From: Escherichia coli
Lineage (GTDB): Bacteria > Pseudomonadota > Gammaproteobacteria > Enterobacterales > Enterobacteriaceae
Length of the DNA stretch: 4,445 nucleotides
Strand: one strand, 5' to 3'
Assembly (NCBI RefSeq): GCF_030384885.1
Contig: NZ_CP128616.1
In this document: positions 1,841 through 4,445 of the stretch, in pieces
Numbering within the stretch: position 1 is the first letter of the stretch
Layout: the number at the start of each line of letters is the position of its first letter
Notes under the pieces: generated by a model
Seen by the model: the letters and a program-made list of their open reading frames with translations, nothing else
What the model was told of the DNA's origin: nothing
Databases searched by the model: none
Made by a program: the position numbers and the translations under genes

Positions 1841-1884
1841 AAATTGGGGGACAACCAGGACAGAACAAAGGCCGCGGCAGAGCC

Positions 1885-2440
1885 GTTTTTCCATAGGCTC
1901 CGCCCCCCTGACGAGCATCACAAAAACAGACGCTCAAGTCAGGGGGAGGCGAAACCCGACAGGACTATAAAGATACCAGGTGTTTCCCCCTGGAAGCTCC
2001 CTCGTGCGCTCTCCTGTTCCGACCCTGCCGCTTACCGGATACCTGTCCGCCTTTCTCCCTTCGGGAAGCGTGGCGCTTTCTCATAGCTCACGCTGTAGGT
2101 ATCTCAGTTCGGTGTAGGTCGTTCGCTCCAAGCTGGGCTGTGTGCACGAACCCCCCGTTCAGCCCGACCGCTGCGCCTTATCCGGTAACTATCGTCTTGA
2201 GTCCAACCCGGTAAGACACGACTTATCGCCACTGGCAGCAGCCACTGGTAACAGGATTAGCAGAGCGAGGTATGTAGGCGGTGCTACAGAGTTCTTGAAG
2301 TGGTGGCCTAACTACGGCTACACTGGAAGGACAGTATTTGGTATCTGCGCTCTGCTGAAGCCAGTTACCAGGTTAAGCAGTTCCCCAACTGACTTAACCT
2401 TCGAAAAACCGCCTCCCCAGGCGGTTTTTTCGTTTACAGA
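1885..2440 (-). ncRNA. RNAII replication primer precursor (ends approximate)
   Basis: RNAII promoter on the - strand: -35 TTGAGA (rc of 2469-2474), 17-bp spacer, -10 TAATCT (rc of 2446-2451), same hexamers as pBR322. 5' end placed about 2440 and 3' end about 555 nt downstream by analogy with ColE1. Confidence 0.75.
2331..2432 (+). ncRNA. RNAI antisense copy-number control RNA
   Basis: Begins ACAGTATTTGGTATCTGCGCTCTGCTGAAGCCAGTTACC as pBR322 RNAI. Upstream promoter -35 TTGAAG (2295-2300), 17-bp spacer, -10 CTACAC (2318-2323) as in pBR322. Terminator stem CCGCCT cccc AGGCGG followed by TTTTTT (2409-2430). Internal loop sequences differ from pMB1. Confidence 0.85.
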
Positions 2441-2512
2441 GCAAGAGATTACGCGTACAGAGCACGGATCTCAAGAAGATCGTAAGAAGAAAGTTAACAT
2501 GAGTGTTTTTAT

Positions 2513-2558
2513 CCCTCAAAAAGAAGGCTTCTATAAATAGAAGCCTTCTTTTTGAGGG
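2513..2558. terminator. 46-bp perfect palindrome / strong hairpin; likely bidirectional terminator between the higA 3' end and the RNAII promoter
   Basis: ccctcaaaaagaaggcttcta taaa tagaagccttctttttgaggg; 21-bp arms are exact reverse complements. T-rich sequence follows on the + strand; higA stop lies 26 bp away on the - strand. Confidence 0.65.
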
Positions 2559-2583
2559 ATAACTTATATTTTTTTAAAAAAAA

Positions 2584-2940
2584 TCATGCAATAGCATGTT
2601 TCTTCTCAGAATTATCAACAATGTGTTTCCTTTCTATGATTTCATGAGCGGGAATCACTCTGTCTATTTCTTCTTGCAATCGAGGGCTACTAGTAACCTC
2701 CCATAAATCAACAGACTGCTGTATATTTAGCCAGAACTTTGCAGTGGTATTGAAGGCTTTAGCCAACCTAAAAGCCATATCGGTAGACAGCTTTCTATTA
2801 TTGTTAACTAAAGCACTGGCAGAGTTTCTATGCACATTCAACATTTCAGCCAAGTCATTGATTTTTAAACCACTTGGTTCGAGATATTCATAAAGAATAA
2901 TATCCCCTACAGTTGATGGCTTTCTAGTTGCTTGGGACAT
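2584..2940 (-). CDS. higA: HigA-family antitoxin (XRE-type helix-turn-helix), 118 aa
   Basis: Translation ...TVGDIILYEYLEPSGLKINDLAEMLNVHRNSASALVNNNRKLSTDMAFRLAKAFNTTAKFWLNIQQSVDLW... has the pattern I recall for HigA/VapI antitoxins (PG.IL.EEFLEP.GL...LA..LGV.R......NG.R.I....A.RLA..FG.....WLNLQ). AGGAG sits 6 nt upstream of the ATG. Downstream of a HigB-family gene on the same strand. Confidence 0.85.
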   Translation of the reverse strand: MSQATRKPSTVGDIILYEYLEPSGLKINDLAEMLNVHRNSASALVNNNRKLSTDMAFRLAKAFNTTAKFWLNIQQSVDLWEVTSSPRLQEEIDRVIPAHEIIERKHIVDNSEKKHAIA

Positions 2941-3142
2941 GCTTTACTCCTAAATTTTTTACTTCTCTCTGTTAGATGAGGAAGATAAGTATTTCGTCTA
3001 TTACCAGCTGTAGCGATGAGTAATTATCTTAAATATAGTCACGTCATTTAGTTTATTAATCATTATTTGTAATGACATTTTAATGTAGGTGAGGGAACGC
3101 CTCACCTACTTGTTTTATAAGATAACAGCCACGACCTGTTAT
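2941..3142 (-). promoter_or_regulatory. higB-higA intergenic spacer (200 bp) with dyad elements; candidate independent higA promoter/operator
   Basis: Palindromes TCATTAtttgTAATGA (3060-3075) and GATAACAGccacgacCTGTTATC (3121-3143); - strand candidate -10 GATAAT; strong RBS for higA. No promoter has been demonstrated. Confidence 0.4.
3085..3109. terminator. Hairpin (10-bp perfect stem, 5-nt loop) inside the higB-higA spacer; terminator-like
   Basis: gtaggtgagg gaacg cctcacctac; followed on the + strand by TTGTTTTAT and on the - strand by A/U-rich sequence. Lies 33 nt downstream of the higB stop on the - strand. Confidence 0.5.
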
Positions 3143-3460
3143 CTATCGGTAATCATGTGGATCGAGATACAAATCCTCGATTCCGTTTTCACCCCACTTA
3201 AATATTAAGCGGTACTTCTCATTCACCCGTATGGATGAATACCCTGTCAATGGAGGGTTGAGATTCTCAAATCGGTTTCCCGGGGGAGACCGCAAATCTC
3301 CAACTTTATCAGCAGCATTCAGCATATCCAGCTTGCGACCTAATGAAGCACTAATCGCAGTTGGAATCTTTCGATTGGCTTTACCATATTTGTAAAACTG
3401 GTATAGCCAATCGTCTCGAAACTGAATGCGGCAATCATCATGTTCATGATCTTGCTGCAT
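3143..3460 (-). CDS. higB: HigB-family toxin (RelE/ParE superfamily, plasmid maintenance system killer type), 105 aa
   Basis: C-terminal region ...DLRSPPGNRFENLNPPLTGYSSIRVNEKYRLIFKWGENGIEDLYLDPHDYR matches the family signature I recall (DLRSPPGNRLE.L.G.R.GQ.SIR.N..WRL.F.W.......I.DYH). GAGGT RBS 9 nt upstream of the ATG. Toxin precedes antitoxin, as in hig loci. Confidence 0.85.
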   Translation of the reverse strand: MQQDHEHDDCRIQFRDDWLYQFYKYGKANRKIPTAISASLGRKLDMLNAADKVGDLRSPPGNRFENLNPPLTGYSSIRVNEKYRLIFKWGENGIEDLYLDPHDYR

Positions 3461-3646
3461 TTTTCTTTTACCTCAATTTTTGCCGCAACTTGGCAATTTT
3501 TTAGATCACCTTCTTACCTCCGATATAGTACAGCAAACACAAGAAATGCACAACAGCACAGTGCACTTGTGCAACCAATAACCATACTGTAGAATGCACC
3601 CACACACAGTGCAGATGTGCAAAATAGAGGGTAATTTGGAGGTTAC
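3461..3646. promoter_or_regulatory. Divergent promoter/operator region between higB (-) and the 80-aa ORF (+), with repeated TGCAC/GTGCA dyads
   Basis: Perfect palindrome TGCACttGTGCA (3562-3573), near-palindrome TGCAGatGTGCA (3610-3621) and further TGCAC copies at 3547 and 3595. Two copies of a roughly 19-bp repeat cacagtgca(c/g)(t/a)tgtgcaa (3557-3574, 3605-3622). Candidate higB promoter on the - strand: -35 TTGTGC (rc of 3548-3553), 17-bp spacer, -10 TACTAT (rc of 3525-3530). Candidate + strand promoter: -35 TTGTGC (3567-3572), 17 bp, -10 TAGAAT (3590-3595). Confidence 0.55.
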
Positions 3647-3889
3647 ATGGCTCTTGTTCGTTCAGGAAACAAAAGCAAGATTTTTGAAGCAGATAAGAAG
3701 TTTAACTCGGTTTTTGACACTGAATATCAGCCGGGAGAAACATGTAAATATGAAGGGATTTATAAATGTACCGGTTGCGGTAAAGAAGTAACTATCGCAG
3801 GTGGGAAAAAAATCCCACCACAAAACCACCACCAACATACCCCCGCGCAAGGGAACATTCGTTGGCAATTGTTTGTTTATGCTCAGTGA
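3647..3889 (+). CDS. Hypothetical small protein (80 aa) with Cys-x6-Cys-x2-Cys and a His-rich C-terminal segment; possible metal-binding or zinc-ribbon-like
   Basis: GGAGG RBS 4-5 nt upstream of the ATG; ORF starts right after the palindromic operator region, divergent from higB. Sequence ...CKYEGIYKCTGCGKEVTIAGGKKIPPQNHHQH.... No family recognised from memory. Confidence 0.55.
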   Translation: MALVRSGNKSKIFEADKKFNSVFDTEYQPGETCKYEGIYKCTGCGKEVTIAGGKKIPPQNHHQHTPAQGNIRWQLFVYAQ

Positions 3890-3899
3890 GGAATAGAAA

Positions 3900-4031
3900 A
3901 TGGCAGATCGTCGACCGCTCAACCCACACGTTGTCGTTCCTAAACCAGGCGGCGGAACTCAACCTCGTGACCGTAACAATGACGGAAGGGTCAGAGGAAA
4001 ACGCTCAGATGCAGGAAAGCCAAGAAAATAA
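3900..4031 (+). CDS. Possible small basic ORF (43 aa, MADRRPLNPHVVVPKPGGGTQPRDRNNDGRVRGKRSDAGKPRK); hypothetical
   Basis: GAGGA RBS 7 nt upstream of the ATG, beginning 11 nt after the stop of the 80-aa ORF; stop TAA at 4029-4031 lies just before an intrinsic terminator. Very short and low complexity, so coding status is uncertain. Confidence 0.3.
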   Translation: MADRRPLNPHVVVPKPGGGTQPRDRNNDGRVRGKRSDAGKPRK

Positions 4032-4035
4032 CAGC

Positions 4036-4064
4036 AAGCCGCCAGCCTGGCGGCTTTTTTATTT
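4036..4064 (+). terminator. Rho-independent terminator ending the 80-aa / 43-aa transcription unit
   Basis: aaGCCGCCAG cc CTGGCGGCtt stem followed by TTTTTTATTT. Confidence 0.75.
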
Positions 4065-4083
4065 ATATCTACAGCTGACACTG

Positions 4084-4099
4084 ATTTACCATAGCATCC
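4084..4099 (+). repeat. Copy 1 of a 16-bp motif ATTTACCATA(G/A)CATC(C/T) (XerD-arm-like)
   Basis: atttaccatagcatcc; 15/16 identical to 4365-4380 and 14/16 to 295-310 (the XerD arm plus adjacent central bases of the cer-like site). Lies 33 nt upstream of the 4132 start codon. Confidence 0.7.
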
Positions 4100-4131
4100 A
4101 CTGTATCTACTCAGTCTTGATAGGTGTTTTT

Positions 4132-4364: not shown

Positions 4365-4380
4365 ATTTACCATAACATCC
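4365..4380 (+). repeat. Copy 2 of the 16-bp motif ATTTACCATAACATCC (exact XerD-arm match, no convincing XerC arm)
   Basis: Reverse complement reads ...ggatg TTATGGTAAAT. The 11-bp arm is identical to the cer XerD arm; the flanking candidate XerC arm matches cer at only about 5 of 11 positions. Lies 46 nt upstream of the ATG at 4426. Confidence 0.7.
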
Positions 4381-4425
4381 GTTAACTGCGGCCTTGTCAT
4401 AAAAGAAATGGATATTGGAGACAAT

Positions 4426-4445
4426 ATGAGCAATAAGATCTATAG
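4426..4445 (+). CDS. 5' end of the tandem-repeat protein gene (3'-partial in window; continues in frame at position 1 if the molecule is circular)
   Basis: ATG at 4426 with GGAG 6 nt upstream; encodes MSNKIY then R from the junction codon (4444-4445 plus position 1), followed by TVSHVDGW... at 2 onward. The repeat unit sequence itself continues across the junction (aataagatctatag|a versus aataaaatctacagga). Confidence 0.6.

Follow-up and report, generated by a model that had tools for sequence, protein, structure and literature searches.

Between its RNAII primer promoter and the 3' end of its higA antitoxin gene, a small ColE1-type plasmid of Escherichia coli carries a long, almost perfect inverted repeat, which is probably a bidirectional terminator of higA whose outer stem arose by template switching during replication. 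The centre of this element has the anatomy of an intrinsic terminator and is conserved among diverged plasmid lineages, while its outer arms change in sequence by mirrored substitutions and its loop is found in opposite orientations in close relatives. From these patterns we infer that transcripts are actually terminated here, that the RNAII promoter is thereby insulated and that template switching is the mechanism which keeps the arms symmetric. The window, i.e., the whole stretch of DNA that was analysed (4,445 nucleotides, NZ_CP128616.1), is ~98% identical to 4.4-kb plasmids of E. coli O111, and the features discussed below are collected in Table 1.

A repeat search returned two arms of 26 nt (2509-2534 and 2537-2562) that are 100% complementary and are separated by a 2-nt centre, AA (2535-2536), which is not self-complementary. 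An earlier note on this DNA had described a 46-bp perfect palindrome at 2513-2558. There is indeed an exceptional inverted repeat at that place, but it reaches 4 nt further on either side, giving a total length of 54 bp, and its AA centre means that it is not strictly perfect. Folded as RNA, the two strands of the palindrome reach -42.1 and -41.4 kcal/mol (z = -10.5 and -9.6), and none of 200 shuffled sequences folded as well; as single-stranded DNA it reaches ~-27 kcal/mol (z = -11 to -12). A 19-nt arm matched nothing in the window besides its own two copies (0.01 expected). In a scan against Rfam 15 at a permissive threshold, no family reached its gathering score on the palindrome; the best match was mir-5984, a eukaryotic miRNA-like family, at 41.7 bits against a threshold of 95, and such sub-threshold matches are generic long-hairpin matches.

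The orientation of the origin is given by RNAI, which is found at 2333-2433 on the + strand (Rfam, 91 bits); since this match fixes the orientation, RNAII is transcribed from the - strand. The palindrome lies upstream of the RNAII -35 element, 34 nt from it, and downstream of the higA stop codon (2584-2586, - strand), 21 nt from it, so the earlier placement of the palindrome between the RNAII promoter and the 3' end of higA is confirmed by the RNAI match, the ColE1/pBR322 homology and the higA stop codon. The higA product scores 93 bits against the TIGR02607 equivalog (cutoff 47.7 bits), and transcription of the gene runs in the direction of the palindrome and, beyond it, of the RNAII promoter. 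A weak hairpin that overlaps the stop codon may act as a first, weak terminator before the palindrome is reached.

Table 1. Features of the inverted repeat and its surroundings (positions in the window).
Feature	Position	Strand	Description
RNAII promoter	2446..2474	-	Presumed from comparison with ColE1/pBR322; -35 TTGAGA (2474-2469), 17-nt spacer, -10 TAATCT (2451-2446); conserved across the plasmid family
Spacer	2482..2508		27 nt from the end of generic ColE1 homology (2481) to the palindrome; common to this plasmid family alone
Whole inverted repeat	2509..2562		26-nt arms around central AA; in hairpin form a 25-bp stem and a 4-nt loop
Left outer arm	2509..2517		TTATCCCTC; differs by lineage, being ACTGCTCCCC in L027 and unpaired in the Kp lineage
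A5 tract	2518..2522		Pairs with the U5 tract; U-tract for - strand (higA-direction) transcripts
Core terminator hairpin	2523..2548		GAAGGCTTCTA, loop TAAA, TAGAAGCCTTC; 11-bp stem, -15.4 kcal/mol
Loop	2534..2537		TAAA; in relatives TAAA, TTTA, TAAC or GTTA
T5 tract	2549..2553		U-tract for + strand transcripts; A-tract complement for - strand transcripts
Right outer arm	2554..2562		GAGGGATAA; mirror of the left outer arm
Weak hairpin	2585..2598	-	CATGC-TATT-GCATG; 5 bp, followed by T8; overlaps the higA stop codon
higA antitoxin gene	2584..2940	-	118 aa; TIGR02607, 93 bits; HTH_3
higB toxin gene	3143..3460	-	PF05015, E = 8e-34; unusual 202-nt spacer from higA

The higBA module has features of its own. 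The spacer between the two genes (2941-3142) is 202 nt long, rather than the genes being adjacent or overlapping, and it contains a promoter-like site for higA on the - strand (3059-3032); higA may be transcribed on its own. The same spacer holds a 10-bp, G+C-rich hairpin (3085-3109) whose stem is invariant in three plasmid lineages, with the loop GAACG (AAATG in the Kp type) and a T-rich tail on the + strand, antisense to the toxin-antitoxin genes. Upstream of higB, two 30-nt direct repeats (3545-3622), each an imperfect dyad TGCACA...TGTGCA, are located between higB and a divergent, Cys-rich ORF of 80 aa (3647-3889; 'protein L' in some records) and are likely operators of the higBA module.

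The origin, the palindrome, higA and higB form a block (~1868-4099) that is common to 52 PLSDB plasmids, all 52 of which have the palindrome, from Enterobacter, Klebsiella, E. coli, Salmonella, Citrobacter and other hosts. This block travels as one unit among differing backbones. Two further lineages carry related versions. The Kp lineage consists of 24 K. pneumoniae plasmids, mostly of 4510 bp, with the same higBA block at 84% identity, and its hairpin is short: AAGAAGGC, a 14-nt loop and GCCTTCTT, with a core stem of 8 bp. The third lineage, L027, is a circular plasmid of ~5040 bp that turned up when metagenomes were scanned with the 3' end of higA as the anchor; it shares 85% identity with the window and 83% with the Kp type, and its palindrome is perfect, with 24-nt arms (ACTGCTCCCCAAAAAGAAGGCTTC, centre CTGTTAGA, GAAGCCTTCTTTTTGGGGAGCAGT). 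The three lineages are thus roughly equidistant (~15% apart) and were compared without an outgroup. Among the other relatives, CP133866 (9552 bp) is a head-to-tail dimer of a 4783-bp plasmid type in which both palindromes have the GTTA loop, and a 1770-bp contig in a 'Methylococcaceae' metagenome-assembled genome (RFQK01000327.1) is a fragment of an enterobacterial ColE1-higBA plasmid, its placement being probably a binning artefact. The number of 68-69-bp tandem repeats, which in the window occupy 1-240, differs from relative to relative (plasmids of 4399-4468 bp). These repeats are coding: an ORF runs from an ATG at 4436 across the circle junction (4436-4445 and 1-262) and encodes ~93 aa with ~4 copies of a 23-residue repeat (NKIYRTVSHVDGWNGLPQYEIRG), for which no significant Pfam or NCBIfam match was found.

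Of the inverted repeat, only the core has been kept by each of the three diverged lineages; within its stem, AAAAAGAAGGCTTC / GAAGCCTTCTTTTT is the same in the window type and in L027 and is mostly retained in the Kp type. Intrinsic terminators have a stem of ~5-14 bp, a loop of 3-8 nt and an immediate U-rich tract, and the core has all of these, with UUUUU directly 3' of the stem on both strands. Its predicted stability (-15.4 kcal/mol) is similar to that of the RNAI terminator (-14.4 kcal/mol) and to that of a second clear bidirectional terminator at 4036-4056 (AAGCCGCCAG-C-CTGGCGGCTT, -14.5 kcal/mol), which follows a small ORF (3900-4031). The palindrome is also placed at the 3' end of a transcription unit, starting 21 nt beyond the stop codon of higA. 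An A-tract mirroring the U-tract, as expected of a terminator that works in both directions, is present in the window and in L027; plasmids of the Kp lineage have an interrupted tract in the + direction (UUCUUCUAGUUU), and their best U-tract, U7, lies in the higA direction. Two observations speak against a terminator: only 4 of the 11 pairs of the core stem are G+C, and a consensus terminator scan of the window did not list the palindrome, probably through the scan's rules on stem length and tail. By anatomy and conservation, the sequence supports the core as a canonical bidirectional intrinsic terminator.

The earlier note had proposed that the palindrome as a whole is a bidirectional terminator, a view that relatives with the same module and no palindrome would count against. 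The anatomy of the core, its conservation in three lineages and its RNAI-terminator-like strength support the terminator reading, but the long palindrome is dispensable for the module: it is missing from the 24 K. pneumoniae plasmids, whereas the core is kept there. In the reading that we favour, the 3'-end terminator of higA would therefore be the A5 tract, the 11-bp stem, the 4-nt loop and the U5 tract. In the higA direction, transcripts would be halted 55-60 nt short of the RNAII primer promoter; in the opposite direction, read-through from RNAI or the ori side would be kept from running antisense into higA. The outer 9 bp of the stem would be unnecessary for termination and would be the product of template switching between the arms.

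Read-through transcription reportedly disturbs ColE1 replication (Stueber and Bujard, 1982); a literature search for read-through into this origin gave no directly usable result. When six unrelated ColE1 plasmids were examined, the 170 nt upstream of their RNAII -35 contained no comparable hairpin, as judged by a naive perfect-stem scan from which one further locus was left out, its anchor motif being unmatched. The idea that ColE1 plasmids in general insulate the RNAII promoter with an upstream terminator is thus unsupported (0 of 6 unrelated plasmids). Promoter insulation is instead plausible as a local need, because here higA points at the RNAII promoter.

The outer stem behaves quite differently from the core. 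Between the window and L027, the core has 0 differences in 28 positions and the flanks have 5 in 43 and 2 in 37 (7 in 80 together), while the outer arms differ at 6 of 10 positions on each side (12 of 20 together) and the centre at 6 of 8. Five pairs of the outer stem differ between these two lineages, and each change is mirrored in the opposite arm. In alignment A3, eight pair changes are two-sided and none is one-sided only, a result reached by 0 of 500 shuffles, and 92% of pairs are held, compared with 46-60% in slid registers. Furthermore, no arm mismatch was found in the ~25 sequences read. The outer arms have changed faster than the flanks (P ~0.01 per pair), which is not fully explained by neutral conversion alone. 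Judged from these alignments, the core behaves like a selected functional element, and the outer arms appear to be free in sequence yet kept symmetric. Mirrored substitutions could also be attained by selection on a long RNA or DNA stem.

One form that such selection could take is nested retroregulation. In lambda tI/sib, the terminator is part of a longer stem, the full duplex of which forms in read-through RNA and is the target of RNase III. By analogy, RNA ending at the U-tract would be stable and read-through RNA would be cut, removing it before it could interfere with the RNAII promoter and tuning the stability of the higA mRNA, with selection acting on the outer stem. The predicted folds agree with this: terminated RNA has a 16-bp stem and read-through RNA one of 25 bp (window) or 24 bp (L027), so that in silico a duplex of at least ~22 bp is found in the read-through RNA only, and the minimum RNase III duplex is ~22 nt (PMC5371410). 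The outer stem has also stayed perfectly paired through five mirrored substitutions, and lambda int retroregulation is an established precedent (cited in PMC5371410, its reference 18). Nevertheless, we regard retroregulation as rather unlikely. The Kp lineage has the same module without the long stem, which would make the function dispensable, and absolutely perfect pairing together with loop flips fits a copying mechanism better than selection, because selection tolerates G-U pairs and bulges. A combination of the two, in which the terminator would be nested in an RNase III-sized duplex that forms in read-through RNA only and is kept perfect by template switching, would make the element a two-layer 3'-end device but is unlikely; if true, the RNAII primer promoter would be protected in a fail-safe manner, and the stability of the antitoxin mRNA would be controlled much as by lambda sib.

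The loop provides the second line of evidence for template switching. Its states in the relatives form two exact reverse-complement pairs (TAAA/TTTA and TAAC/GTTA), which occur in plasmids with identical 25-nt arms. A tree of the flanking sequence (600 nt on the left, 1450 nt on the right) requires no fewer than four independent flips among 14 plasmids, although recombination may distort this tree. The Salmonella plasmid CP047425 (TAAC) and the Enterobacter plasmid CP133866 (GTTA) have opposite loops and are the same at 146 of 146 informative flank columns; the flank SNP at 2504 (T/C) is found both with TAAC and with GTTA. Loop state is uniform within clonal groups, with GTTA in 40 records and TTTA in all O111 plasmids read, so the flips are heritable states and not random assembly noise. 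An assembly artefact is unlikely as the cause of the flips, given that the uniform groups come from many laboratories and that 25-nt arms are resolved by k-mers of at least 33, although individual records may be affected. Two control loops, those of the 10-bp hairpin at 3085-3109 and of the RNAI terminator, showed no flip and have one orientation in all plasmids.

Template switching has been shown to homogenise the arms of inverted repeats and to invert their spacers, reversibly, with long arms preferred and short spacers favoured (PMC8604942), and it has been proposed to make and maintain perfect RNA stems and to invert loops, bacteria included (PMC8794818). What such a process should leave behind is present here, i.e., exact reverse-complement spacers in close relatives and mirrored arm changes without half-changed intermediates. 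The mirrored arms and loop flips are accordingly read as signatures of template switching, a mechanism that we infer from their pattern. A functional core terminator would have become embedded in a palindrome that copies itself from arm to arm, and hairpin-templated copying would repeatedly even out the arms and invert the loop, so that the palindrome stays perfect while its outer sequence drifts. Perfect symmetry, drifting outer sequence and loop flips, all three of which leave the stem untouched, would be expected of such a self-copying palindrome.

Loop flips imply at least occasional formation of the hairpin in DNA in vivo, and this raises the question of whether the dyad acts as DNA, e.g., as a cruciform, a supercoil sink or a protein-binding site that modulates transcription of the primer or the passage of the fork at the end of unidirectional replication. 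The dyad is located upstream of the strong RNAII promoter, and plasmids of the ColE1 type are classical examples in which cruciforms have been observed. Perfect 25-bp arms with an A+T-rich centre and flanks would favour cruciform extrusion, and the DNA hairpin has an energy of -27 kcal/mol. We nonetheless consider a DNA-level role quite improbable. Half-sites of 26 nt are far longer than any operator, no third copy of the arm was found in the plasmid, the higB promoter has its own unrelated operator-like repeats and the gene content suggests no protein that would bind the palindrome. Moreover, the Kp lineage lacks the long dyad, its DNA hairpin not being significant (-7.2 kcal/mol, z = -2). 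A HigA operator, which would be a short dyad near the higBA promoter to which the antitoxin binds, is likewise improbable, as the palindrome is at the 3' end of higA and the promoter region has different repeats (TGCACA...TGTGCA, 3545-3622).

It is most improbable that the palindrome is a remnant of a mobile element or recombination site, such as an integron attC, a Xer site, abutted IS ends or a REP/MITE-type repeat, even though an attC is typically a palindromic site at the 3' end of a gene and Xer-like sites occur elsewhere on the plasmid (~295-324). Outside this plasmid family the arm is essentially absent: a 20-mer of it was found in 100,044 species genomes on one contig alone, from the same plasmid family, there were no chromosomal matches in complete E. 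coli genomes, and the only two matches in the viral collection were single-arm matches inside coding DNA that are attributable to chance. The lack of an Rfam family at gathering score on the palindrome points the same way. Each candidate also fails on its own terms. An attC would have R''/L''...L'/R' cores (RYYYAAC...GTTRRRY) at the arm ends, which are missing, and the stem is perfect, without extrahelical bases. Xer sites have two 11-bp recombinase arms around a centre of 6-8 bp; with 26-nt arms and a 2-nt centre, the palindrome has no 11-6-11 architecture, nor is it similar to the core of cer (dif/cer sites). A REP, MITE or IS-end repeat, of which many copies would be spread over unrelated contexts, was rejected, the palindrome being found only beside higA in this plasmid family.

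Several other repeats were observed on the plasmid. A cer-like XerCD core lies at ~295-324 (ATTTACCATAA-CATCTGTA-TTGTACGCACC), half-site-like ATTTACCATA(A/G)C sequences occur at ~4084-4111 and ~4366-4395, and the shared ori-higBA block ends near 4099, beside one of these; this arrangement may point to an exchange of modules through Xer. Between 545 and 790 there is a cluster of CCACCATCAGCCCAC / GTGGGCTGATGATGGGCT copies, some direct and some inverted (e.g., 645-663, 729-746 and 762-779), which look like iterons or protein-binding repeats. Nested inverted repeats, with 19-nt arms at 1022-1040/1043-1061 and 29-nt arms at 1047-1075/1210-1238, may be a remnant of an oriT or relaxosome on a plasmid that is without mob genes.

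Lastly, the palindrome could be a scar or a junction between the higBA cargo and the ColE1 backbone that received it; the earlier note had suggested that it may mark such a junction. In favour of this, ColE1 plasmids are known to be mosaics in which some regions are conserved and others variable, with a described boundary between the two (PMC5864857), and G+C content drops from 0.52-0.60 in the origin to 0.34-0.37 from ~2450 to 3200. The idea is unsupported, however, because generic ColE1 homology does not stop at the palindrome: similarity to thousands of module-less ColE1 plasmids ends at 2481 (position 182 of the query, window:2300-2620), which is immediately upstream of the -35 and leaves 28 bp to the palindrome. 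Across three lineages ~15% apart, higA has been inherited together with both the spacer (2482-2508) and the hairpin core, and the ori-palindrome-higBA block (~1868-4099) moves between backbones as a unit.

A single plasmid might be taken to speak for the junction. When the 27-nt spacer was sought in plasmids lacking the module, only K. oxytoca CP011627 was matched, and weakly (E = 0.1). This plasmid belongs to the same replicon cluster as the Kp type and is without higA; it matches through the spacer and the left arm into the start of a loop like that of L027, after which the sequences diverge. In CP011627 (locus L004, ~1560-1700), a transposase ORF (ATGAACGTTAAGACTGTCGGC...) begins ~90 nt beyond the left half-hairpin. 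Because an IS element adjoins the left-arm remnant, this suggests a later rearrangement that broke within the hairpin, and not a footprint of cargo capture; the hairpin may be a hotspot for rearrangement or IS targeting. Overall, a junction or scar is quite improbable as an explanation: as far as the compared sequences indicate, the palindrome is near the ColE1 conserved/variable boundary, yet it does not mark it.

The element would thus join two known kinds, a bidirectional intrinsic terminator and a palindrome maintained by template switching. As a terminator it would be an ordinary one and would account for the tolerance of a cargo gene that is transcribed toward the ColE1 primer promoter. 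The palindrome makes this plasmid family a clean natural bacterial example of a long hairpin whose loop has flipped repeatedly and whose arms have changed by mirrored substitutions, and in which the compensatory evolution of a stem can come from a copying mechanism instead of from selection. Hairpin loops of this type are homoplasious markers and call for caution in plasmid typing. On multicopy plasmids, the flip/flop polymorphism could also report in a simple way, in vivo, on the formation of hairpins and on template switching.

With respect to known systems, the element resembles the bidirectional Rho-independent terminators found between convergent or adjacent transcription units in Enterobacteria, with which it shares the A-tract, the G+C-containing stem, the 4-nt loop and the U-tract, as well as the symmetry that gives a stem and U-run on either strand and the site just past a stop codon. 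Those terminators typically have stems of 5-14 bp, whereas here 9 extra perfect pairs outside the A/U tracts extend the stem to 25 bp. Lambda tI/sib is alike in having a terminator nested in a longer potential stem, with the full RNase III-sized duplex in read-through RNA alone; it differs in that the stem here is perfect and not bulged, that the long stem is missing in one lineage and that RNase III cleavage is here hypothetical. Minute loop inversions in chloroplast non-coding hairpins, reportedly described by Kelchner and Wendel in 1996, are similar in that a short loop enclosed by perfect inverted repeats shows homoplasious flip/flop that does not follow the phylogeny of the flanks; they occur in a different genetic system. 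The likeness to template-switch-homogenised inverted repeats (quasipalindrome correction, the Ripley model; PMC8604942, PMC8794818) extends to perfect arms, exact spacer inversion, recurrent and reversible events, multi-base compensatory changes and the preference for long arms and short spacers. Unlike the published quasipalindrome cases, the repeat described here is a natural terminator on a multicopy ColE1 plasmid, carried by clinical and environmental isolates.
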